Shown here: in pieces, positions 15,694-30,566 of the stretch
Numbering within the stretch: the first letter of the stretch is position 1
Layout: each line of letters opens with the position of its first letter
From: Desulfomonilia bacterium
GTDB lineage: Bacteria > Desulfobacterota > Desulfomonilia > UBA1062
Length of the DNA stretch: 64,000 bases
Reading direction: 5' to 3'
Assembly (NCBI GenBank): GCA_963664325.2
Contig: CAXXDQ010000004.1
Location: 416,001-480,000 of the forward strand
Notes under the pieces: model-generated
Told to the model about the DNA's origin: nothing
The model's input: the letters and a program-made list of their open reading frames with translations, nothing else
Databases searched by the model: none
Program-made: the position numbers and the translations under genes

Positions 15694-16533
15694 TTATATA
15701 GGCTTCATGCCCAGGATTTTCCGGGCCTCTTCGGGGGTTGCCACTTCGCGCCCGATCTCACGCGCAAGTCGAACCACCCTTTCAGCCAGCTGGGCGTTGC
15801 TTTTTGCGAGCTCCCCTTTTTTATAATAGATGTTGTCCTCAAGGCCGACCCGGACGTTTCCGCCCATAATCAATGAAGCCACGTTCATCTCCATCTGAAA
15901 GCGCCCTATCCCGGATACGTTGAAGATCGAGCCTTCCGGCAGGAGATCTATCATGGAAAGCAGGTTTTTTGTCGTTCCGGCATATCCGCCCATGCCGTCA
16001 ACGCCCATGACGCAGTTAATGTAATAAGGCTTTTTGAGCAGGTTTTTCCTGATAAGGTTTTCGACTTCGCCGAACATCGACGGATTGTAAACTTCCAGTT
16101 CGGGCTTGATGTCCAGTTCAATCATTTTAGCGGCGAACGCCTCTATTTCACTGCGCAGGTTCATGAACAGGCTTTCCTTTTTCTCTTTTCCAATGAAAAA
16201 CACAACGGAACCCATATTGAGAGATGCGGATTCGGGCCCGGCATTGAGGCTTAAAACCCGTTCATTTATCGGGATGCCAACACCGCCGGTCGTATTCTGT
16301 ATGATGACAGGGCATTTCGCCCTGATGCCTGAATTGATCTCCTTGAATATTTCGGCGTTGCCTATGCTTCGGCCCTGTTTATCCCGGGCATGCAGGTGAA
16401 CGATAGAAACTCCTGCATTATAGCAGTCGTAAGCATCCTTTATGATTTCATCAGGCTGCTCGGGCAGGTTCGGGTTTGCCTCCTTGCCCTGCATCGCTCC
16501 TGTGAGCGCCGCAGTTATTATAAGTTTTTCCAT
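15694..16533 (-). CDS. Beta-keto acid cleavage enzyme (BKACE/DUF849, Kce-like)
   Basis: LIITAALTGA, HLHARD metal motif, TTGG, SLNMGS, VRVGLEDN. Confidence 0.92.
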   Translation of the reverse strand: MEKLIITAALTGAMQGKEANPNLPEQPDEIIKDAYDCYNAGVSIVHLHARDKQGRSIGNAEIFKEINSGIRAKCPVIIQNTTGGVGIPINERVLSLNAGPESASLNMGSVVFFIGKEKKESLFMNLRSEIEAFAAKMIELDIKPELEVYNPSMFGEVENLIRKNLLKKPYYINCVMGVDGMGGYAGTTKNLLSMIDLLPEGSIFNVSGIGRFQMEMNVASLIMGGNVRVGLEDNIYYKKGELAKSNAQLAERVVRLAREIGREVATPEEARKILGMKPI

Positions 16534-16626: not shown

Positions 16627-19266
16627 CTACTTTATTAAAATTCTCAGGGGCCTGCTTTTCGATATGGTTATCTTGTTATCAAGCAGAAGTTCTCCCTTTT
16701 TCTGAACAAAGCCGATCTCTGTTTCGCCAAGCAATAATTTCTTTACCGTACTTTTTGAAAGGTAAGGAAGATTGATGCGGCGCAGAATGAGGTTGCCGTA
16801 AAGCACTCTGATCTCGGTAAATACTTTTTGCTTGTACACTTCACCCCAGCCAGAGGAGAGTGACCAGAAGCATCTGAATCGGTCATGAGTATGCCAGATG
16901 ACTGGATTGAAGCCGATCAGGCCCTTGGCCGTATCGAATTCAAATCCGCTGAACGCGTTAAGCAGGGCATAACTCGCCATTGACCGGGCATAATTGCTGC
17001 CGCATTCAAACTCGTTGAACGGGTTGCGCTTTTCGCCGTCGTAGCGCTCGCGCACGGCTTTCACGACAGACATGCCTTCCTTGACCATGCCTCTCTGTAT
17101 CATATGGCCAGCAGCCGCATATTCATAGCCGTTCTGCGTTTCCTGCGAATAGGTCAAAGGGATCGAAGGCCGGGGCCTTTTACCTGGCCACTCGCAAACG
17201 ATCAGCCCCTTTTCGTCGTTAATGCAGTATACCCGGCAGGGGTTGGGAAAATCGCGCATGGATTTAAAGTTGTATTTGTAAAGGGAAGCGAGAGATTTTT
17301 TTGTCTGTACAGGGTCGAAGATTTCACCGAGCCCATACAGGTTCGCATGCCACTGTGCAAGCACCTGGTCGATGTCGCACCCCTGACCTATCTGATATTT
17401 GATCTCAGCGTGCTCTGCATCCCAGTATTCACCTGCAGCATCGAATTTTTCAGGAATGGTTTTGTCTTTCAGATCAATAAGCTGGCAATAATATTCTCCG
17501 CCATAAAGGTTGGCATCAGCCCAGGCCTTTCCTTTCCTGAACAGGGTCATATATTCCGAGGCCGTAACCGTTTCACCTAGATGGTCGGCCATTTCAGCTC
17601 CGGCCTTCAGGGCCGCCAGGTAAAATCCCGTCAGCCATGAGTTCGGGCCGAACAGCTCCATGTCGAGCGTATGATGCTGGCGCCCCTGAAGTACCCCCGT
17701 TTTTTCCGGGTCCCATGCGTCTATATTGGTTTCAGCCCAGGCAAACTCGATGGACTTCCTGACTGCAGGCCAGATGTTTTTCAGCCAGGTCGTGTCACCG
17801 CTTATTTTCCAGTCGCGGTAAACCTTGAGTACATTTCCGAAAAGCCCGTCTGCGCAGGACCTTCCGCCCTGGTCGTCAGAGCCTACAGAGCCGCCCGCTC
17901 CCCCGGGATGCATAATTCCCAGGGGCAGTTTGAGGCGGAATGGCATGCCGCCGTTTGGCTGCTGGTTGTAGCGATAATCGGCGTCCCGCATGGACCTCTC
18001 AAGTTTCGGAAAAAGAAACGGAAGGGCCTGGGCGTAGTTCCAGACATGAGTGCACGAGCCCTCACAGCAGCCTGTATTGCAGAAGCATCCCTCCCACCCG
18101 TAAAAGGTCCCGTCTTCAAGCCTCATGACGGACGGTGATTTGAGTACGGACAGGTTTGACGATACGGCTTCGATAGCCTCAACCGGCAGGTCGGAAGCCC
18201 AAAGAGCGTTCTTGAAAAGAAGAGTCTCTTTGTAAAGGCGGTCCTGGTTTTTAAGAGCGTAGATGCCGCTTTCCTTCGAATCCTTCCATATGATTGCATA
18301 GTAGTTCTTCCATGTTAACGGTATGCCCGCTTTTTTTGCGAGTTCCGTGGCGTTAGCGTCCCAGTAGTTCTGGCAGTTGGGAAAGTTCCAGCTGATGACA
18401 AATCTGACGCTTTTTCTTGCTCCGGGTTTAATCAACATATGCGCAGCAAGCGTGCCGTGATTATATCCTCCGGCCTGCTCCGGACTGTATATGCGGTTAG
18501 CAAGCCTGCCGGGCGTGGTCATGTCCTTCCAGTAGATTTCAAGGCTGTCGAACCAGTTGCCCCTGTACCAGTACTGCTGGGCGCTAACATCTTTTGCGTC
18601 GGTCGAAATGCACAGATCGCCGAATCCCGGGTCAATGGGCTTGAAGAAATCGGCTGTCATGAACAGGGAAGTAATGCCGTCTTCTTTTGAAATCATGTTG
18701 CTGCTCACTCCGGGCAGCGAGTTTGTCAGAGTTCCCGTGATTGTATAAAGAACCGGTTTTGAGTATGTGTTTTTAACCTCGATATCGAAAAAGGCCGCCG
18801 GGATGCCGGAATCCATGTCGTTAAGGGGAATGAACGGATTGAACGCTGTCAAGATCACATTTCCCGGAAACCTCTTTTCTTTAAAATCAAGCTTGGCGAT
18901 CGGATATTCTCCGGTGAATTCGACCGATCTGAAATGGGGAAGGCCTGCCAGGAATTCCCTCGCCGGACCGAAGCCATAGCCGGTGCCGCTGCCCGTATAT
19001 GGCGGGTGCAGGTCTCCGTTCAGTATCCTGGCATCCAGGATTTTACCGCCGCTTTCCGCCCTGACAGCAAAATGTGAAAAGCCGTTTACACTGCCCTTGT
19101 TGGGCCGGTTGAAGATCTCCCAGTCGATCAGCCTGCCGTTTCCTGCAAGTCCGATGCAGCCAGACCCGATGCCGCCGATAGGGAAGCTTATTTCTTTAAG
19201 TTGCTGCTTTCTGTATATGCGGGGAGAGCCTTTTTCATGGTTATTTTTAGCGGATTGCCGTGCCAT
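16627..19266 (-). CDS. GH116 glycoside hydrolase (GBA2-like beta-glucosidase/glucosylceramidase family)
   Basis: PIGGIGSG N-terminus, [43 protein letters not shown]; 879 aa. Confidence 0.85.
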
Positions 19267-19305
19267 GCTTGCCTCCTTGCCAATGTCTTATGATTTTCAT
19301 CGTTG

Positions 19306-19336
19306 ACCGGCCTTTTCTGAAAAGGGCCGGTTTTTT
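19306..19336 (+). terminator. GC-rich hairpin with T-tract on the + strand
   Basis: ACCGGCCTTTT-CTG-AAAAGGGCCGGT followed by TTTTT. Confidence 0.5.
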
Positions 19337-19483
19337 CGGGAGATTGAAGTATAAGTTTTTTTAGATAGGTTTCCAATAAGATTTCTCTGAAATTTCGGGA
19401 AGAAAAATAAGGCAACTTTTTATTCGGAAAAACCAAAATGAAGAAACAGCTCCTGCTGGGCTTTATAGATACAAATCCGGTGA

Positions 19484-21055
19484 TCAGAAGGCCCTTGCAA
19501 GGATTGCATCGGCGGCCCTGACGCCGTCGACAGCAGAACTTACTATGCCGCCTGCATACCCGGCGCCTTCGCCTGCCGGGTACAAACCGGACACGGAAAC
19601 GGACTGCATATCGTCACCGCGCAGTATGCGAAGAGGGGAAGATGTCCTGGTCTCGACTCCGATGAGCACTGCCTCTTCCGTCATAAATCCCTTCATCCTT
19701 TTTTCGAAATGTCTTAATGCCAGCCTTATTTCGGAGGCGATCCACTCAGGTAGATAAGAGTGGTCTGACGGTTTGATGCCGGGCAGGAAAGATGAAGCAG
19801 GAAGATCACCGCAGGTTTTTTTTGCGGCAAACGAGGTGATACGCTGGGCCGGGGCGCAAAAACCGCCGCCGCCTGCGGCAAAGGCGGCCTTTTCGAGTGA
19901 CCGTTGAAAATTTATGCCTGCCAGGATATCCCCCTTAATGTCATCCGGCCCTATGGTTACCACTATGGCGGCATTTGAAAAGAGGCCGTCCCTTTTGGAA
20001 AAACTCATACCGTTTGTACAGAGCATGCCGGGCTCCGATGAGGAATTGATAACCTCCCCGCCCGGGCACATGCAGAAGGAATATGTCCCGCGGCCGGTAG
20101 ACTTGTTGTTGAATGTCAATACGTACTCCGCTGCGGGAAGCACCCCTTTTCCGGCAACAGGCCCGTATTGCATACGGTTGATGAGTTCCGCAGGATGCTC
20201 GGCCCTGAGACCTATAGCGAACCCTTTTTTTGTTAAGGAGACGCCAGAGCCTTCAAGCATTTCATAGGTGTCACGGGCGGAATGACCTGTTGCCAGCACC
20301 ACTGCGTCAGCAAGGTATTCGTTGCCCGTTTCCGTAATAAAACCTTTAACCTTTGAATCGTGTAAGATAAGCGAGACGGCCTTTTCGGAAAAATAAATTC
20401 GCGATCCCGAATTCAGAATATATTTCCTTATATTTCTGATTATTACTCTAAGCGTGTCCGTGCCCAGATGAGGTTTCTGCTCATACCTTATTTCTTCAGG
20501 GGCGCCCATTTCAACAAGCCTGTCAAACATCCAGGCGATTTCAGGTCTGCGGGTTCGGGTCGTGAGCTTGCCGTCGGAATATGTTCCGGCACCACCCTCT
20601 CCGAAAAGCACGTTGCTGTCTATATTGAGGAGTCCTCTTTGTTTGAGCTGTTCGATGTCCGCAATCCTTTCTTCAACGGGCTTGCCCCTTTCTATTATTG
20701 TTGCCGTACCGCCTGCTTCAATAAGCCTTAATGCACAGAATAGTCCGGCTGGACCGGACCCGGCTATGATTACCCTGGGAAGGCTCGCCAGACGCCGAGC
20801 CGGAATGTTCAAAGGCGATTCAGTCTTGATGCTTATCCCGGGGATCTTCAGCAGACGCCGGGCATCTTCCTCAGAGACATCAGCTTCGATTCTGTAACAC
20901 CATACGATAGCAGCCTTGTTGCGGGCATCAAGCGATTTCCTGAGAATTTTAAACGGGGTGCTGCCCGGCAGGTTATATAGACTTACAAGTTTTCCAGAAA
21001 GGCCGTCTGAATTTTCGAACGGCGAGAGTTCAATGGAATCAAAAACGAGGTTCAT
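19484..21055 (-). CDS. Uncharacterised FAD-dependent oxidoreductase (COG2509-like)
   Basis: GSGPAG Rossmann motif, GEGGAGTYSDGKL, SFCMCPGG, ETRTSSP, GEGAGYAGGIVSSAVDG. Confidence 0.88.
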   Translation of the reverse strand: MNLVFDSIELSPFENSDGLSGKLVSLYNLPGSTPFKILRKSLDARNKAAIVWCYRIEADVSEEDARRLLKIPGISIKTESPLNIPARRLASLPRVIIAGSGPAGLFCALRLIEAGGTATIIERGKPVEERIADIEQLKQRGLLNIDSNVLFGEGGAGTYSDGKLTTRTRRPEIAWMFDRLVEMGAPEEIRYEQKPHLGTDTLRVIIRNIRKYILNSGSRIYFSEKAVSLILHDSKVKGFITETGNEYLADAVVLATGHSARDTYEMLEGSGVSLTKKGFAIGLRAEHPAELINRMQYGPVAGKGVLPAAEYVLTFNNKSTGRGTYSFCMCPGGEVINSSSEPGMLCTNGMSFSKRDGLFSNAAIVVTIGPDDIKGDILAGINFQRSLEKAAFAAGGGGFCAPAQRITSFAAKKTCGDLPASSFLPGIKPSDHSYLPEWIASEIRLALRHFEKRMKGFMTEEAVLIGVETRTSSPLRILRGDDMQSVSVSGLYPAGEGAGYAGGIVSSAVDGVRAADAILARAF

Positions 21056-21561
21056 TTAGGTTTTCTTCGAAGTGCCTTTACGTAAATGATTTTTCCGTCT
21101 CCAGGCATGTAGTAGTCTTTAAGGAAGGCTTCCTTTTTGTAGCCGCAGCGCTTGTAAAATGCCTGTGTCGGGATATACAGGTCCCTTGCCGAAGTCTCGA
21201 TATAAATACGCCTGCAGCCCACAGCAGATGCAATTTTTTCAGTCTCCTTCAGAAGGGATTCGCCAATGCCTTTCCTCTGATGCCGGGGATGTACGGCGAT
21301 CCAGTACAGGTCGAAACTGCCGAAGGTGCAGGGTATTTCTCCGAAGCACGTATATCCTGCAATGTGACCGGCAATATCCGCAAAAAGAAAACTGTACCCG
21401 CTCTCTGTTCCGTATTCCAGCCTGTCGAGAGCAAGTTCAACACCGATCTCTATTTCCTCATGATGGAAAAAGCCGGTTAAAGTGAGTATTTCATGGATGG
21501 AAGCGATATCTTCCTTACGTATGTCATGCCTGAAAACAAGTTCAGGGTTTAACATAAGCAT
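21052..21561 (-). CDS. GNAT-family N-acetyltransferase
   Basis: LYWIAVHPRHQRKGIG acetyl-CoA motif A, ETS...TQAFY..CGY. Confidence 0.9.
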   Translation of the reverse strand: MLMLNPELVFRHDIRKEDIASIHEILTLTGFFHHEEIEIGVELALDRLEYGTESGYSFLFADIAGHIAGYTCFGEIPCTFGSFDLYWIAVHPRHQRKGIGESLLKETEKIASAVGCRRIYIETSARDLYIPTQAFYKRCGYKKEAFLKDYYMPGDGKIIYVKALRRKPK

Positions 21562-22551
21562 TTAATGGCAGGCTGCTGTAATAATCTGACCGATTGTCTG
21601 GGCGTAGCTCAGCCCGGTCTCCTGCGCGGCGGCGGCTAATCCGCTTTCAGGCTGCAGGCACGGATTTGCGTTTATTTCAAGCACCCAGGGCTTGCCTAGA
21701 GTGTCCACCCTGAAGTCAACCCTTGCATATCCCTTGAGGCCGAAGATCTTCCAGCATTTAAGCGTCATTTTTTTCAGTGTGTCGACAAGCTCGTCCTCTC
21801 CTTCGAGGTTGAAACTTCTTTTAGTCATGTCATATTCAGGCGAGTCCTCCGCCCATTTTGCCTTGTAATCCATGATGGGGAGCATGCCTTCATTATGAAG
21901 GAAGTGCATCTCCGCAGGAGGCATGACCTTTATACCCCCCGGCGTATCCATTATTGATATATTAAATTCCCGGCCTTCGATAAACCGCTCTGCAAAACAT
22001 GGTTTGCCGATTATTTCCGAGCGCAGTCTGGTCCGGTCTTCAACGTCTTCAATGTTTACAGCCGTGATAACGGCCTCCGAATCAAGCCCGATAGAGGCGT
22101 CTTCAAAAACAGGTTTGATGATGTAACGATCCGGGAAAGGCAGCCGTGTAAATGGTCTTTCGCCTGGTATAATCCAAGGGGCCGTACAGACTCCTCTTGC
22201 CAGCAGCATTTTTTTGGTCAGCACTTTATTTGTAGTGATCATGATCGATTCTGATGATGAGCCGGTAAAAGGAATGCCCCAATATTCAAACATGGCCGGT
22301 GCCAGATATGAAAGCCTGCTGGATCCCATGACTGATTCCACAAGGTTGAATACGCAAAGCGGGTTATCATTTTTAATGATTCCCAGCATTTCGTCGGGCC
22401 TCATGAAAAACGGCCTTGTCACAGATTCAAGCCCCAAATCAAGGATTGCCTTTGATATCTCCTCTGCGGCTGAGACGACTTCTTTTTCGTCTTCAGGAGA
22501 ATCATCAGTAACCGGATTGTGGAAAATTGTAACCTTCTGTTTTTCAATCAT
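21562..22551 (-). CDS. Ddl-like ATP-grasp ligase (non-canonical)
   Basis: IPFTGS...NKVLTK, IIKPVFEDASIG, ERFIEGREF, ARVDFR, LEINANP; lacks the Ddl GGxSxE and LHGxxGEDG motifs. Confidence 0.85.
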   Translation of the reverse strand: MIEKQKVTIFHNPVTDDSPEDEKEVVSAAEEISKAILDLGLESVTRPFFMRPDEMLGIIKNDNPLCVFNLVESVMGSSRLSYLAPAMFEYWGIPFTGSSSESIMITTNKVLTKKMLLARGVCTAPWIIPGERPFTRLPFPDRYIIKPVFEDASIGLDSEAVITAVNIEDVEDRTRLRSEIIGKPCFAERFIEGREFNISIMDTPGGIKVMPPAEMHFLHNEGMLPIMDYKAKWAEDSPEYDMTKRSFNLEGEDELVDTLKKMTLKCWKIFGLKGYARVDFRVDTLGKPWVLEINANPCLQPESGLAAAAQETGLSYAQTIGQIITAACH

Positions 22552-23528
22552 ACCGTCACCCTCTTTTGAGCTGATGTCATTATTTCTTCAATTACAGTCT
22601 GATAACTGATACCGTTCAGCCTTGCTATAATCGGGAGATCCGAATGCACGGGATTGAGCCCTGCAAGAGGGTTAGCTTCGATGAAATTCAGGATCCCCTT
22701 TTCATCCATGCGGATATCTATACGGCCGGCATCGCGACAGCCCAGGCCCTTCCATGCCTTCAGGGCCAGCTCCGAGCATGCATTCAAAATGTCTTCTTCG
22801 GGGATGTGGTAATCAATAATCTGTTCATAATTGCTTTTGTTGTAATAGGAATAAATCAGTTCTTCGCTCTGAGCTTTTTTTAAAAAAACTTCCATTGCCC
22901 CGACACATTTGGAATCTTCGCCGGTGCCGATTATCCCTGCGGTAAATTCCCTCCCGGGAAGATACGTTTCGGCGATCAGTGGCTGTTTGTATGAAGCGAG
23001 CAGCCGGGAGACAGTAGTTTTCAGTGTTTTCAGGCTATCGACCTTTGACGTGCCGTCAATGCCTTTTCCCGTGCCTTCGCAGGCTGGCTTGATGAACAGG
23101 GGATACGGAAGGTCGATGGCGTCGGTTTCCGTTTCGTTTTCGATTATGGCGAAATCCGCAGTCGTTACCCCGTAATGCCTGACGATTGATTTGGTAATGC
23201 CTTTGTGAAGGCATACTGAAAGCACAAGAGGGTCGGAAAACGTATAAGGGATTCGATAGGCGTCAAGAAGCGCCGGAACAAGAGATTCGCGGCCGGCACC
23301 ATACATGCCCTCCGCGATATTGAACACCATATCCCAGGTTTTTCCTGATGCAAGTTTTTGTATGAGTTCTTTTGCGTTTCCGACGCGCTCCGTATCATAT
23401 CCCAGGGCAACCAAGGCGTTTTCAATGGCCTCTATGGTCTCAAGACTGTCAAACTCTGCTGCTTCTTCTTTGGAAAAACCCTCTCTCAGGTAATCGTCTT
23501 TAAGGTCATATGTCAGGCCGATCAGCAT
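22548..23528 (-). CDS. Ddl-like ATP-grasp ligase (non-canonical)
   Basis: FNIAEG...GRESLVP, IPYTFSD...HKGITK, KPACEGTGKGI, ETYLPGREF, GRIDIR, IEANPLAGL. Confidence 0.85.
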   Translation of the reverse strand: MLIGLTYDLKDDYLREGFSKEEAAEFDSLETIEAIENALVALGYDTERVGNAKELIQKLASGKTWDMVFNIAEGMYGAGRESLVPALLDAYRIPYTFSDPLVLSVCLHKGITKSIVRHYGVTTADFAIIENETETDAIDLPYPLFIKPACEGTGKGIDGTSKVDSLKTLKTTVSRLLASYKQPLIAETYLPGREFTAGIIGTGEDSKCVGAMEVFLKKAQSEELIYSYYNKSNYEQIIDYHIPEEDILNACSELALKAWKGLGCRDAGRIDIRMDEKGILNFIEANPLAGLNPVHSDLPIIARLNGISYQTVIEEIMTSAQKRVTV

Positions 23529-23541
23529 CTTATGTATAATC

Positions 23542-24822
23542 CTAATTGTTGTCCGGATATCTGATTAGGCGACCCTCGTAGTTTCTAAGCAGAAGGTCGT
23601 TACCAATGTTACCCAGGTTGTGCTGAGGAAGAATGGCTATTTTACCGCCGCCGCCGGGAGTGTCGATGACATAATGCGGCACGGCGTATCCCGTTGTATG
23701 GCCTCTTAGATTTTCTATCATTTCCAGACCCCTGCTGACCGGAGTTCTGAAATGCGACGAACCGATAATCGGGTCGCACTGGTACAGATAGTAAGGTCTT
23801 ACCCGTATTTTAAGCAGACCCGTGAACAGCTTTTTCAAAGTTTCAGCGTCATCGTTTATCCCTTTGAGCAGCACGGTCTGGCTTCCCATGGGTACCCCGG
23901 CATCCGCAAGAAGCCCGCAGGCAGCGCTTGTTTCAGGTGTGAGTTCGTCCGGATGGGTGAAGTGAATGCTCATCCACAGAGGCTGGTTTTTGCGAAGGAT
24001 CCTTAAAAGCCGCGATGTAATGCGGTATGGAAGCACAACCGGCACCTTTGTGCCGATGCGTATCATCTCCACATGAGGGATGGCCCTGATTCTGGAAATG
24101 AGATAATCAAGATCGGCGCTGGGCAGCGTCAAAGGATCTCCGCCTGAGAGCAGGACATCGCGCACTTCTTTCGTTGATTCGATATACTCGATCGCCTTTT
24201 CCCACTGCAGTCTGCTCACCCTGAATCTGTTGTTTCCGACCATGCGGGAACGTGTGCAGTAACGGCAATATGTCGAACAGAAACCGGTTGTCAGGAAAAG
24301 CACTCTGTCAGGATAACGGTGGACGATTCCCGGCACCGGGCTCTGGTGATCTTCTCCGAGCGGGTCTTTTTCTTCCCCGATGCTTCTTATGAATTCATTT
24401 TCCACAGGAATGACTGCACGCCTGATCGGGTGGCGGTCATTGAACTGATCGATAAGGCTTGTGTAATAGGGAGTTATCCTGACCGGCAGACGTGTACTGT
24501 CCGTCCTGTTGAGCGCAGATTCTTCTTTGGGTGAAAGTTTTATGAATCTCTGCAGATCGGCAACGGAGCGCAGACTGTTCTGAAGCTGCCATTTCCAGTT
24601 CGACCAGTCGGAGAGGCTCACATGAGGAAAAAATTCGTGGACGAATTCTCGTGTCGAATTGCTTGCAGGGATAAGACCAGAAAAAGGCCTTTTAAAACCG
24701 GTTATCGATAGAACGGGCTCGGCCGCTGTTAGGGACGGAGGCTCTTCCGGGATCTCGTTTACAAGGGGCGGGGGTTCTTCTGAAGTTATCGCCAACTCAG
24801 TTACCATACTCGGTTTTGCCAT
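23542..24822 (-). CDS. kamA: KamA-family radical SAM aminomutase (lysine 2,3-aminomutase-like)
   Basis: HRYPDRVL, CSTYCRYCTR (CxxxCxxC), LSGGDPL, QTVLLKGIND, PYYLYQCD, PLP-lysine motif DTPGGGGK. Confidence 0.9.
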   Translation of the reverse strand: MAKPSMVTELAITSEEPPPLVNEIPEEPPSLTAAEPVLSITGFKRPFSGLIPASNSTREFVHEFFPHVSLSDWSNWKWQLQNSLRSVADLQRFIKLSPKEESALNRTDSTRLPVRITPYYTSLIDQFNDRHPIRRAVIPVENEFIRSIGEEKDPLGEDHQSPVPGIVHRYPDRVLFLTTGFCSTYCRYCTRSRMVGNNRFRVSRLQWEKAIEYIESTKEVRDVLLSGGDPLTLPSADLDYLISRIRAIPHVEMIRIGTKVPVVLPYRITSRLLRILRKNQPLWMSIHFTHPDELTPETSAACGLLADAGVPMGSQTVLLKGINDDAETLKKLFTGLLKIRVRPYYLYQCDPIIGSSHFRTPVSRGLEMIENLRGHTTGYAVPHYVIDTPGGGGKIAILPQHNLGNIGNDLLLRNYEGRLIRYPDNN

Positions 24823-25074
24823 CTTAAATTCTCCTTAATCAGCTTTATCGGTGCCCGTAATAAAATACTTTAAAAAAAATACTATAAATTGACCAAAAAC
24901 TAGGGCTGCTGGCCGTTCCGAGTTGCATCTATAATTCGCATATAGAGAATAAAAAAAATATTTGTCAATGTTTTTATGAGAAAAAAAAGATGATATTTTT
25001 TTGCATCCAATGCCGCTCTGGACGAAACCTTTGATTTGTGTGTAAATAAGCTTTATTCAAGAACCGGAGGAGAT

Positions 25075-27546
25075 ATGTTTTCAGATTATAAACCTGGCGA
25101 AATCGAAGAAAAATGGCAGGAGGTATGGGAGAAAAAAAATCTGTTCAAGGTAAAACCTGACAGCATAAAAATAAAATATTACCTGCTCGAGATGTTTCCA
25201 TATCCGTCAGGCCGCATACACATGGGACATGTAAGGAATTATTCCATCGGCGATGTGGTTGCACGGTTGAAGCATATGATGGGGTTCAACGTACTTCACC
25301 CTATGGGATGGGATGCTTTCGGAATGCCGGCCGAGAATGCGGCTATTGCAAGCGGCGTTCATCCGAAGAAATGGACGTATGAAAACATCGCCTACATGAA
25401 AAAGCAGCTCAAACGCATGGGCTACAGCTATGACTGGGACCGCGAGGTGACGACCTGCGCGCCTGAATACTACAAATGGGAGCAGCTCTTTTTTATCAGG
25501 ATGTTCGAAAAAGGGCTTGTTTACAGAAAGCGCGGCTTTCTCAACTGGTGCGAGAAATGCAACACGGTCCTTGCGAACGAACAGGTCGAGGACGGCGCAT
25601 GCTGGAGGTGCGGAACGCAGGTCATCCTGAAGGAGCATGACCAGTGGTTTTTCCGGATTACGAAATACGCCCAGGAACTGCTGGACAATATTGAAAAGCT
25701 TAAAGCGGGTTGGCCCGAGAGGGTACTCGTAATGCAGAAGAACTGGATAGGCCGCAGCATCGGTTCAATGATAAAGTTCAAGATAGACGGCCTTGAAGAA
25801 GACATAGAGGTTTTCACCACGAGGCCGGATACGATCTTCGGAGCCACGTTCATGAGTCTTGCACCTGAACACCCGCTGGCGAAGAGGCTTTCAAAAGGAA
25901 CGGTTCAGGAAAAGGCCGTCAATGCTTTTATAGAAAAGACACTCAAGGAAGACAAGATCACCCGGACCTCGGATTCCTATGAAAAGGAGGGCGTGTTTAC
26001 GGGCGCATATTGCATCAATCCTCTCACCGGCTACAGGATGCCCGTTTATGTAGCGAACTTTGTTTTATACGACTATGGCACTGGCGCCGTCATGGCGGTC
26101 CCCTCTCATGACCAGCGCGACTTCGAGTTCGCCAAGAAATACGGCCCGGAGATTATCGTGGTCATACAGCCTGAAGAAGAGACCCTTGATGCGTCGAAGA
26201 TGACAGGGGCCTATGAGGACGAAGGAGTCCTGGTCAATTCGGGTCAGTTCAACGGCATGAAAAACAAAGAGGCTATGGGTGCCATCAACTCGTACCTCGA
26301 AGAGATAGGACGCGGCAATGCGACCATAAACTTCAAGCTCAGGGACTGGGGCATTTCACGCCAGCGCTACTGGGGGGCGCCGATCCCGATAGTCCATTGC
26401 GAGAAATGCGGGATGGTGCCGGTGAAGGTAAGCGAGCTGCCGGTGATATTGCCTGAAAATGTCGATATCAGCGGCGCAGGCGACTCTCCAGTTTCAAAGG
26501 TGCCGGAGTTTGTGAATACGGAATGCCCTAAATGCGGCGGGCCTGCAAAAAGGGATACGGACACCATGGACACGTTCGTCGAATCAAGCTGGTACTTCAT
26601 GCGCTATGCATCCAAAGAATATAAAGATCAGCCTTTCGAGGCTGATGAGCTTGCCTACTGGATGCCGGTTGACCAGTATATCGGCGGCATCGAACATGCG
26701 ATCCTTCACCTTCTTTATTCACGATTCTTCACGATGGTTCTGCGCGACCTCGGGTATACAAAATTGAGCGAGCCTTTCGAGAAGCTGCTCACACAGGGGA
26801 TGGTCATAAAGGACGGGGCGAAGATGTCAAAGTCCAAGGGCAATGTAGTCGACCCTGAAGAGATGATAAAAAAATACGGGGCGGATGCCACACGGCTTTT
26901 TACGCTTTTTGCCGCACCGCCGGAAAAGGATATGGACTGGAGCGACAAGGGCATAGAAGGAAGCTACCGTTTCCTTATGAGGCTCTGGCGGCTCGTGCAG
27001 GACATCAAGGATATACCGTCGGGAACGGGCGCCATCCCGCAATCGATGGAGGATATCTGGCGGAAGACGCATCAGACTATAAAGAAGGTCACCGATGATG
27101 TCGACAAGCGCTTCCACTTCAATACGGCAATTGCCGCCATGATGGAGCTCGTGAACGATATTTACAGGATTCGTGAAACGGTACCCGGAAACGACCAGTG
27201 GGTTATTAAAAAATCGGCGGAGTATCTGCTCATACTTCTTTCACCTTTTGTGCCGCATATCGCAGACGAGCTTTGGCAGGTCCTCGGCAAAGAAGGCGAA
27301 CTCTTTGACATGCCCTGGCCTGGTTTTGATGAAGAGTGGGCCAAAGACGCGGAAATCATCATAGCCGTACAGATCAACGGAAAGCTGAGGGGAACGATAA
27401 ACGTACCGGCCGGGTCGGAGCAGGCTTTCATCGAGGAGGCTGCATACCGGGACCCGAAAGTTATCAAGAACATGGAAGGCATGCAAAAGGTAAAGGTAAT
27501 ATATGTCAAGGATAAGATTCTCAATATTATTGTTAAGCCTTGTTAG
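25075..27546 (+). CDS. leuS: Leucine--tRNA ligase
   Basis: [13 protein letters not shown] (HIGH), FTTRPDT editing motif, KMSKS; RBS GGAGGAG before 25075. Confidence 0.98.
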
Positions 27547-28958: not shown

Positions 28959-30566
28959 ATGAACAGGAATAAAAGCAGAAAGGCTCAGATAATTCCGAGA
29001 GACCATATTTCAGGAGCGGACCACACGGAGTATGAAAAATTTATTGCAGAACTGTCCGCGAGATTTATAGCCATTTCCCCGGACAAGATCGATGAAGAAA
29101 TCGAAAAAGCATTCAAAGAAATTCTTGCATTTTTTGATGTCGACAGGAGTTCTCTGCTCAAGCTCCTGCCAGGCAAAACCTCATGGATGATTACACACTG
29201 TGCCAGTATTCCCGGCATACCGCCGCTTCCCTTAAATGCAGAGCTGCCTGTATCGCTTATCTCATGGGCATATAAAAAACTTGCAAAAGAGCGCAGGCAT
29301 TTTTCTTTTGAAAACCATGACGATCTGCCTGCGACGGCCACGAAAGACAAAGAAACATACAAGACGTTCAATATAGTATCAGGCATTTATATACCCATCG
29401 CAGCCCTGATGTCTTCAGAGTATTCCATCGGCGCCGCCACATTCAACAGAAACAGGTCATGGCCTGAAGAGTTCATTCCGCGGCTGAGGCTGCTCGGGGA
29501 AATTATCGTCAATGCCCTGGAGCGCAGCAGGGGCGAGCTTGAACTCCGGGAACGGCTGGAAGAAATCCAGAAACTGAAGCTTCAACTGGAAAAAGAAAAT
29601 ATCTACCTGCGTGAAGAAGTAAAAAAAGGACAGGGTTTCGAGAAGATCATCGGAAAAAGCGACTCCCTTAATTATGTTCTCTTCAGGGTCAAACAGGTGG
29701 CTCCTACGGATGCGACCGTGCTCATCTTGGGTGAAACAGGGACCGGCAAGGGGCTTGTGGCCCACGCCATACATGAAATGAGCAACCGCAGGGAGAGGCC
29801 CATGATAACTGTAAACTGCGCGGCGCTGCCCGCCAATCTGATTGAAAGTGAACTTTTCGGCCGGGAAAAAGGGGCCTTCACCGGGGCCAGCACCAAGCAG
29901 GCCGGACGGTTCGATGTCGCCAACGGCGGTACGATTTTTCTGGATGAAATAGGAGAGATGCCGCTGGAGCTTCAGGCAAAGCTCTTGAGGGTGCTGCAGG
30001 ACGGCGAATTTGAAAGGCTGGGGAGTTCAAAGACGATCAAGGTTGACGCAAGGGTGATCGCTTCGACAAGCAGGGACCTGAAGGCCGAGGTCCGCAACAA
30101 AAGTTTCAGGGAGGATCTCTATTACAGGCTCAATGTATTTCCCATTTCAATCCCGCCTCTGACCAAGAGAACCGACGACATCCCGCTGCTCGTGAATCAT
30201 TTTATCGGTAAATACTCGCGGAAGTTTGGAAGGAAATTTGAAGCCATTTCTAAAAGTACGATGAAAGCCCTTCAGGAATACAATTGGCCGGGCAATGTAA
30301 GAGAACTGGAGCATATAATCGAAAGGGCCGTAATCACGAGCCAGGGGTCTGTTCTCCAGCTTGCCGAATGGCTTGAGCATGATTCGGCGACAACTGCTGA
30401 AGGCAGATTTGATGATCTTGAGGCAGTAGAACGTCAACACATCATCAAAGTCCTTGAAGGCACATCCTGGAAGATTGACGGAACAGGCGGAGCCGCTTCC
30501 GTTCTCAAACTTCACCCGAGCACCCTTCGGTTCAGGATTAAAAAACTAGGCATCAGGCGTTCCTGA
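28959..30566 (+). CDS. Sigma-54-dependent transcriptional activator (FhlA-like; GAF-like + AAA+ + HTH)
   Basis: GETGTGKG, ESELFGREKGAFTGA, LDEIGE, FREDLYYRLNV, WPGNVRELE, C-terminal HTH. Confidence 0.95.
   Translation: MNRNKSRKAQIIPRDHISGADHTEYEKFIAELSARFIAISPDKIDEEIEKAFKEILAFFDVDRSSLLKLLPGKTSWMITHCASIPGIPPLPLNAELPVSLISWAYKKLAKERRHFSFENHDDLPATATKDKETYKTFNIVSGIYIPIAALMSSEYSIGAATFNRNRSWPEEFIPRLRLLGEIIVNALERSRGELELRERLEEIQKLKLQLEKENIYLREEVKKGQGFEKIIGKSDSLNYVLFRVKQVAPTDATVLILGETGTGKGLVAHAIHEMSNRRERPMITVNCAALPANLIESELFGREKGAFTGASTKQAGRFDVANGGTIFLDEIGEMPLELQAKLLRVLQDGEFERLGSSKTIKVDARVIASTSRDLKAEVRNKSFREDLYYRLNVFPISIPPLTKRTDDIPLLVNHFIGKYSRKFGRKFEAISKSTMKALQEYNWPGNVRELEHIIERAVITSQGSVLQLAEWLEHDSATTAEGRFDDLEAVERQHIIKVLEGTSWKIDGTGGAASVLKLHPSTLRFRIKKLGIRRS

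Follow-up and report, generated by a model that had tools for sequence, protein, structure and literature searches.

A candidate operon for an N-acetylated beta-lysine amide on a widely conserved aminomutase and ATP-grasp ligase cassette in a Desulfomonilia bacterium

Comparison with described beta-lysine and ATP-grasp systems

The pathway to N-epsilon-acetyl-beta-lysine, consisting of AblA and AblB, is known from methanogens and some bacteria, and a corresponding kamA-yodP pair is known from Bacillus. The window analysed here was a 64,000-nucleotide stretch of contig CAXXDQ010000004.1 from a Desulfomonilia bacterium, whose genome was 95.6% complete. It contained five co-oriented open reading frames (ORFs) on the minus strand (19484-24822), encoding, in transcription order, a KamA-family aminomutase (KamA), two ATP-grasp ligases (G1 and G2), a small GNAT acetyltransferase, and a flavin adenine dinucleotide (FAD)-dependent protein. 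The ORF list, the reading of the sequence, and the Pfam and NCBIfam searches agreed with the genes, junctions, and domains given for this region in the first-pass annotation. The conserved unit is composed of four genes (KamA, G1, G2, and GNAT), not five. The region was read, with a probability of roughly 0.6, as a biosynthetic operon built on this widely conserved four-gene cassette and making a small N-acetylated beta-lysine amide or di- or tripeptide.

Each part of the cassette belongs to an enzyme family that is already known, and AblA/AblB is the nearest described system. Its combination with a pair of ligases of apparent Ddl origin is undescribed. Methanogen ablB is treated in PMC12363242. 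No description of the cassette was found in a full-text literature search of sources other than subscription journals and supplements. As in AblA/AblB, a KamA-type mutase was encoded beside a GNAT, and beta-lysine would be made for use rather than for fermentation. Unlike AblA/AblB, the cassette had two ATP-grasp ligases between the mutase and the GNAT, and the mutase scored below the AblA cut-off and had no zinc site. The cassette GNAT, with 169 residues against about 266 for AblB, scored only 17.2 bits on the AblB model TIGR03827 (cut-off 205.1). This sequence comparison supported the earlier proposal that the GNAT is not AblB, and AblB was not found in the host genome.

N-acetylglutaminylglutamine amide (NAGGN) is made by Ngg, a bifunctional protein with GNAT and ATP-grasp parts, together with AsnO. 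Compared by description, the two systems share a GNAT and an ATP-grasp enzyme, which are fused in some organisms, and a ribosome-free route to an N-acetylated dipeptide-type solute. The NAGGN route, in contrast, has no aminomutase and no beta-amino acid. The L-amino-acid ligases BacD, RizA, and the B. licheniformis ligase are similar in that an ATP-grasp enzyme joins an unusual amino acid to others, but they matched the fold of G2 with Z scores of 16.8-19.9, compared with 27-32 for Ddl. Peptide-antimetabolite ligase clusters often carry genes for acetylation or deacetylation and exporters. Unlike such sporadic antibiotic clusters, the cassette was stably inherited in whole families, as in family f13, where it was present in 11/11 genomes.

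EpmB and EpmA bring about the beta-lysylation of elongation factor P, and EpmA is a paralogue of lysyl-tRNA synthetase (LysRS) that acts on a protein. The cassette resembles this pair, in which a KamA-family enzyme that is short and has no zinc tail feeds beta-lysine to a dedicated ligase. It differs in that EpmA is a LysRS-type enzyme with a protein target, and the cassette KamA scored 253.6 bits on the EpmB model, below the cut-off of 369.3. EpmA (genX, TIGR00462) was not found above its cut-off in the host genome; the best match, a 541-residue LysRS-like frame, scored 228.7 bits against 286.9.

Microviridin-type graspetide clusters are composed of two ATP-grasp ligases and a GNAT, the same trio of enzyme types as in the cassette. 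In contrast to these clusters, the operon had no precursor peptide gene, and its junctions of 13, -4, 0, and -4 nucleotides left no room for a small ORF. Moreover, the ligases of peptides made by ribosomes and then modified post-translationally (RiPPs) matched the G2 model with Z scores of 14.1-15.7, against 27-32 for Ddl, and KamA kept the residues for a free amino acid.

The conserved cassette and its enzymes

Relatives of the cassette were searched for in one genome per species, using a profile from an alignment of G1 relatives. At least 592 stretches matched, of which at least 586 were confirmed, and the neighbourhoods were counted by tblastn in the best 80 of these confirmed loci. KamA was located upstream of G1 on the same strand in 70/80 loci (missing despite contig room in 8, contig cut in 2), and G2 followed G1 in 68/80 (missing despite room in 8, contig cut in 4). 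GNAT came next in 51/80 (missing despite room in 15, contig cut in 14). All four genes were found together in 45/80 loci, with many of the misses at contig ends. The first-pass annotation had proposed a system of five genes, which might have turned out not to co-occur in other genomes. The part from kamA to GNAT proved to be the conserved core, whereas the FAD gene followed GNAT in 2/80 loci only (L009 and L011).

Fusions of the same proteins followed the gene order of the cassette. Long relatives of G1 numbered 151 at E <= 1e-30, and the 120 listed were composed of 90 G1-G2 fusions, 24 KamA-G1 fusions, 2 G1-G2-GNAT fusions (P0208 and P0216), 3 proteins with two G1-like halves, and 1 with a single G1 domain. 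Fusions of G2 with GNAT were found in loci L063 and L104. Because the neighbourhood was conserved and the fusions kept the same order, the genes were considered to form one functional unit.

The cassette was common, with at least 586 species genomes giving a match, mostly of anaerobes. By the submitters' labels, which can be wrong for metagenome-assembled genomes, the carriers belonged to at least seven phyla. The labels included Desulfobacterota lineages, Bacteroidota, Ignavibacteria, Acidobacteriota (Aminicenantes and Thermoanaerobaculia), Planctomycetota, Spirochaetota, Bacillota, and a few Pseudomonadota. Many carriers came, according to the record titles, from freshwater, peat, groundwater, and digester samples, and the titles also included metagenome-assembled genomes labelled Melioribacter roseus and Desulfatirhabdium butyrativorans. 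In a sample of 401 genomes of the window's phylum, in which the G1 and KamA lists were cross-checked by hand, G1 was present in 96/401 genomes and a KamA homologue in 264/401. KamA was present in 96/96 of the G1 carriers, compared with 168/305 of the non-carriers. The distribution was patchy within families, and the cassette was found in 3/6 genomes of the window's own family.

A KamA-family gene was located elsewhere in 8/8 genomes whose G1 had no adjoining KamA. Solo G1 orthologues surrounded by unrelated genes were found in L084 (7995-8981, 56% identity), where the neighbours encode TPR proteins and a ribonucleotide reductase of class II, and in L016 (7992-8969, 59% identity), where they encode YchF and an ABC ATPase; both genomes had a KamA-family gene elsewhere. 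In the Bacteroidota genome of L049, which had G1-G2-GNAT without an adjoining KamA, the KamA-family match was split (G003:C1:66835-67792), with a TGA inside one piece.

Smaller and larger versions of the cassette were also observed. KamA and G1 occurred without G2 or GNAT in 6/80 loci (L017, L039, L066, L069, L070, and L085), and a membrane protein was encoded next in four of these six: AzlC in L017, a bestrophin-like protein in L039, and MFS-HEAT in L069 and L070. Transporters of four Pfam families (MFS, MFS-HEAT, AzlC, and CitMHS), in addition to the bestrophin-like membrane protein, adjoined some loci. The MFS gene was present in four loci, and in L019 it was located between G2 and GNAT. 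A fusion of GNAT with a histone deacetylase (HDAC)-type deacetylase was encoded in or beside the cassette in 13/80 loci, and also in L104. The order in L104 (2942-9850) was KamA, the GNAT-HDAC fusion, G1, the G2-GNAT fusion, and a CitMHS-family transporter, with all genes co-oriented.

The KamA gene (23542-24822, minus strand) encodes a putative radical S-adenosylmethionine (SAM) and pyridoxal phosphate (PLP) lysine 2,3-aminomutase of 426 residues, the sole KamA-family protein of the host genome. It matched LAM_C and Radical_SAM, and scored 346.8 bits on the KamA family model TIGR00238, above the cut-off of 199.2. On the AblA equivalog model TIGR03820 it reached 469.5 bits, below the cut-off of 525.4, and its scores on the glutamate (395.8) and arginine (380.3; cut-off 600) aminomutase models were both lower than on this lysine model. 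KamA matched the Clostridium enzyme 2A5H with 424 bits, and its CSTYCRYC sequence was aligned to the cluster motif of 2A5H. The Asp of YQCD corresponded to D293, the Asp of VIDTPGGGGK to D330, and the Lys of the latter to K337, so that all three residues were kept. We take D293 and D330 to bind the epsilon-ammonium group of lysine and K337 to bind PLP. The binding residues supported a lysine-type aminomutase, as had been suggested in preference to a glutamate-type enzyme.

The zinc site of 2A5H is presumably formed by Cys268 and a C-terminal Cys triad. The C268 position was occupied by Asp in KamA, and the Cys tail appeared to be missing because the match to 2A5H stopped at residue 366 of 416, in line with the earlier observation that the tail is absent. 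KamA represented a subtype whose tail is short, and its N terminus was extended by about 60 residues. Among 64 cassette KamAs, comprising 63 from related loci and the window's own, the motif CxxxCxxC was kept in 64/64, YxYQCD in 63/64, and DxPGGGGK in 61/64. The tail beyond GGGGK had a length of 30-59 residues in 60/61 of these proteins, and contained no Cys in 43/61.

The ligases G1 (22548-23528, minus strand, 326 residues) and G2 (21562-22551, minus strand, 329 residues) both matched PF07478, with 89.9 and 73.1 bits, respectively, and shared 28% identity with each other. On NF002378, the best Ddl model for G1, G1 reached 159 bits and G2 reached 114 bits, with the cut-off at 243; on the Ddl model TIGR01205 the respective scores were 120 and 99 bits, with the cut-off at 245.65. 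Both proteins were under the cut-off of every curated Ddl and Van model, and no NCBIfam model claimed G1 or G2. A genuine, separate Ddl was encoded in the host genome and scored 245.9 bits, compared with 91.1 for G1 and 73.8 for G2.

The RxD and ExN motifs were present in both ligases, and their R, D, E, and N residues were invariant or nearly so across both families. GGxSxE and LHG..GEDG, which we take to be the N-terminal motifs of Ddl, were absent from G1 and G2 when the sequences were read by eye, and at these places each ligase family had its own set of invariant residues. When G2 was aligned with E. coli DdlB, the ATP-binding and catalytic residues K144, K215, R255, D257, E270, and N272 were kept, as was S281. 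In contrast, S150 was replaced by Ala, Y216 by Trp, and L282 by Gly, and the N-terminal domain with E15 was unalignable. The substrate triad of Ddl is presumably Glu15-Ser150-Tyr216. G1 had Thr and Ser at the places of S150 and Y216, an assignment made through the G1-G2 alignment and therefore less certain.

Among solved structures, only Ddl was matched by sequence, with 75 bits for G1 and 64 bits for G2, and no relative of either ligase nearer than Ddl was found in the PDB sequence search. The AlphaFold models of G1 and G2 had pLDDT values of 87.8 and 92.1, respectively. The folds nearest to the G1 model were those of Ddl, with TM scores of 0.76-0.77. The G2 model also matched Ddl best, with Z scores of 27-32 (up to 31.9), and the next families were at about 20. 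More distant folds included LysX/ArgX (about 20), RimK (19.2), TTLL11 (15.4), and the RiPP ATP-grasp ligases mentioned above. A predicted complex of G1 and G2 gave a score of 0.14 (mark 0.32), which speaks neither for nor against an assembly of the two.

G1 and G2 thus resembled Ddl and VanA in the full-length fold match and in the ATP-binding and catalytic residues kept in G2, and differed from them in the scores below the cut-offs, the changed D-Ala triad of G2, the replaced N-terminal motifs, and the linkage or fusion to KamA and GNAT. Because of these low scores, the changed triad, the replaced motifs, and the presence of a separate Ddl, G1 and G2 are probably Ddl-derived ligases with other substrates. 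The first-pass annotation, which had described two strongly differing ligases that keep RxD and ExN, lack both N-terminal motifs, and are not Ddl, was borne out in these respects. The ligases are named D-alanine--D-alanine ligase in public annotation. Hundreds of genomes appear to be mislabelled in this way, with the risk that metabolic models, and screens for ligases of the vancomycin-resistance type, are led astray.

The small RimI-like GNAT (21052-21561, minus strand) scored 57.3 bits on PF00583, above the gathering cut-off of 20.7, and 54.1 bits on the rimI model TIGR01575, below the cut-off of 86.4. The FAD-dependent protein (19484-21055, minus strand, 523 residues) matched PF21688 (FAD-depend_C) with 223.5 bits, and its closest solved relative was 3NLC, the uncharacterised Vibrio protein VP0956, with 394 bits. 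Since the start of the FAD gene overlaps the stop of GNAT, the gene is probably co-expressed with the cassette in the window. The FAD gene was not found with the cassette in 3/3 same-family carriers, and in one genome (G399) it was located 776 kb from G1. The FAD gene is a local, lineage-specific add-on and not part of the core, either a passenger or an optional tailoring step, the two roles foreseen for it in the earlier reading.

Proposed pathway and alternative explanations

In the proposed pathway, KamA would turn L-lysine into beta-lysine by radical-SAM/PLP chemistry, as suggested by its homology and its kept catalytic and substrate residues. G1 would then link beta-lysine, at the cost of ATP, to another small molecule through an amide; the partner is probably an amino acid, and might be a further beta-lysine. 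This step was assigned to G1 because this ligase occurs in fusions with KamA and is its partner in the minimal cassettes, and for the same reason G1 is likely to be the first of the ligases to use beta-lysine. To the product of G1, a further amide linkage would be added by G2, which was often fused to G1 and sometimes to GNAT, and GNAT would acetylate a remaining free amine. HDAC-type deacetylases of the family found here remove acetyl groups from primary alkyl amines. The GNAT-HDAC partner in some lineages suggests that the acetyl group is placed on the epsilon-amine of the beta-lysine part and can be removed again.

The product may stay inside the cell and act as a protective solute, for which N-epsilon-acetyl-beta-lysine and NAGGN provide the closest analogy, or may leave it in lineages whose operon includes a transporter gene. 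The transporters of the operon suggest such export in some lineages. Knowing what the product is would extend the amide-forming chemistry known for the Ddl family by a beta-lysine branch, and may bring to light a solute or secreted compound that is widespread among syntrophs, sulfate reducers, Bacteroidales, and other anaerobes.

Several points weigh against this pathway. The enzyme families and their linkage were seen directly, whereas we infer the substrates, the order of steps, and the product, with the steps after KamA taken from genomic context. GNAT was missing from 15/80 loci and G2 from 8/80 despite contig room, so the end product would vary between lineages. KamA scored under the AblA cut-off and had no zinc site, and its substrate and stereochemistry are not certain for this reason. 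The co-occurrence of KamA with G1 in 96/96 carriers overstates the support because kin are not independent, and KamA-family genes above the cut-off were also common in the controls (7/14 control genomes). The co-occurrence is thus supporting evidence rather than proof. The habitats of the carriers do not favour a salt-stress solute. In addition, RimI-like GNATs and HDAC-type deacetylases are typical protein modifiers, which would fit a protein target as well.

Such a target is the basis of the first alternative, in which the ligases graft beta-lysine onto a macromolecule, either a carboxylate or lysine of a protein or a peptidoglycan stem, and GNAT, together with the HDAC-type enzyme in lineages that have one, switches the charge of the attached amine on and off. 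Beta-lysylation of this kind would rely on ATP-grasp ligases, be unrelated to EpmA, and occur in many phyla of anaerobes. The presence of these classic protein modifiers in or beside the cassette, the lack of an EpmA above the cut-off in the host genome, and the occurrence of the protein-modifying RimK (Z 19.2) and TTLL11 (Z 15.4) among the distant folds of G2 are consistent with it. The closest folds, however, were by a wide margin those of the small-molecule Ddl enzymes (Z 27-32), and no conserved target gene travelled with the cassette. Transporter genes were present in the operon of several lineages, and the patchy distribution even within the window's family (3/6) was unlike that of a core translation or wall function. 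The modification of a macromolecule was therefore regarded as unlikely.

A second alternative keeps the same biosynthetic logic but gives the aminomutase a basic substrate other than lysine, for example ornithine or arginine, so that the product would be built on a different beta-amino acid. This is conceivable because KamA is a distinct subtype, with a short tail and no zinc site, and its score of 469.5 bits was below the AblA equivalog cut-off of 525.4. On the other hand, both side-chain-binding Asp residues and the surrounding motifs were kept in nearly all cassette KamAs, and the score on the arginine model was lower still (380.3 against 600). A substrate other than lysine is accordingly doubtful, and the N-acetylated beta-lysine product is preferred.

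The operon might instead break down or salvage lysine or beta-lysine, after the manner of lysine fermentation (kamA, kamDE, kdd, kce, and kal) or the Bacillus yodP-kamA operon, which also acetylates beta-lysine. A gene of the BKACE family (15694-16533, minus strand) was found 3 kb downstream of the operon in the same orientation, standing by itself with prfC and the GH116 gene on either side. Its best model was Kce of lysine fermentation, with 310 bits against a cut-off of 382. The first-pass annotation had found neither lysine-fermentation nor epmA genes in the window. The statement on epmA held, and could be extended to the whole genome for matches above the cut-off, but the statement on lysine fermentation was not strictly right because of this Kce-like gene. 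The BKACE gene was not among the gene families recurring near the cassette in the best 80 loci, and the GH116 gene and a 217-bp gap separated it from the operon. KamD (PF09043) had no match in the host genome, although this negative is weak because the control genomes gave no match either. The fermentation route as it is known, moreover, does not involve ATP-consuming ligases. A catabolic role is thus very improbable compared with the synthesis of a beta-lysine amide.

That G1 and G2 are extra wall dipeptide ligases (forming D-Ala-D-Ala, D-Ala-D-Lac, or D-Ala-D-Ser) lying beside kamA by chance, as their public name, Ddl fold, and kept catalytic residues might suggest, is scarcely credible in view of their scores under all Ddl and Van cut-offs, the changed S150 and Y216 of G2, the replaced N-terminal motif, the genuine Ddl elsewhere in the genome, and the linkage and fusion with KamA and GNAT as fixed features.

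Junctions, surroundings, and accessory genes

The junctions of the operon were read from the sequence. The stop codon of kamA (TAG) was followed after 13 nucleotides by the ATG of G1, and G1 and G2 overlapped in ATGA, with a GAGGG-like site located upstream. The TAA of G2 abutted the ATG of GNAT, and a second ATGA overlap joined GNAT and the FAD gene. The leuS gene was divergent from kamA, and the 213-bp intergenic region between them (24823-25035), also read from the sequence, presumably contains the promoter and the 5' untranslated region. By ORF coordinates and sequence, the gap of 217 bp at the other end (19267-19483) extended from the FAD gene to the next minus-strand gene, encoding a GH116 glycosidase.

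No Rfam match was found in 19200-25200 at E <= 1, nor across the whole window at the gathering score, and there was consequently no lead to a riboswitch. In a promoter and terminator scan of 19100-25100, sites were no more numerous than in shuffled sequences. No sigma-70-like site was called in 24823-25035, and a sigma-54-like site (consensus with up to 2 mismatches) was not found there. The gap that follows the FAD gene contained, at 19308-19330, a G+C-rich hairpin with a 6-bp stem and an 11-nucleotide loop. The T-run of this hairpin was on the plus strand, on which there is no gene end at this place, and the terminator scan made no call there.

A sigma-54-dependent activator was encoded at 28959-30566 on the plus strand, after leuS-lptE-holA and 4 kb from kamA. 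Its control of the operon was considered and rejected, as the gene is beyond leuS-lptE-holA and no matching promoter was present upstream of kamA. Activators of the same sequence cluster adjoined the cassette in other lineages, and sigma-54 activators were encoded within 8 kb of the cassette in 9/80 loci. In L102 (1149-8213), the order was G1, a PAS histidine kinase, an NtrC-type sigma-54 activator, a receiver protein, a 150-residue protein of unknown type, KamA, and G2. This variant was that of one family of the window's phylum. With the kinase, activator, and receiver located between G1 and KamA-G2, this cassette contains a two-component switch of its own.

Small proteins were encoded near KamA in some lineages. 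A protein of about 80 residues without a Pfam family was located directly upstream of KamA in 7/80 loci (for example, L048:1962-2225 and L083:2693-3031). It often followed a sigma-54 activator, and its Atlas matches were unnamed clusters of Thermodesulfobacteriota. In loci of the Desulfobacteraceae type, an ORF of 127-166 residues was located near KamA (L018:301-735, L021:5663-6163, L037:2363-2821, L058:717-1103, and L088:654-1037). It had no NCBIfam match, and may be real or an artefact of ORF calling. The distance from the end of this ORF to the start of KamA was one base in L018, L021, and L037, three bases in L088, and 97 bases in L058.

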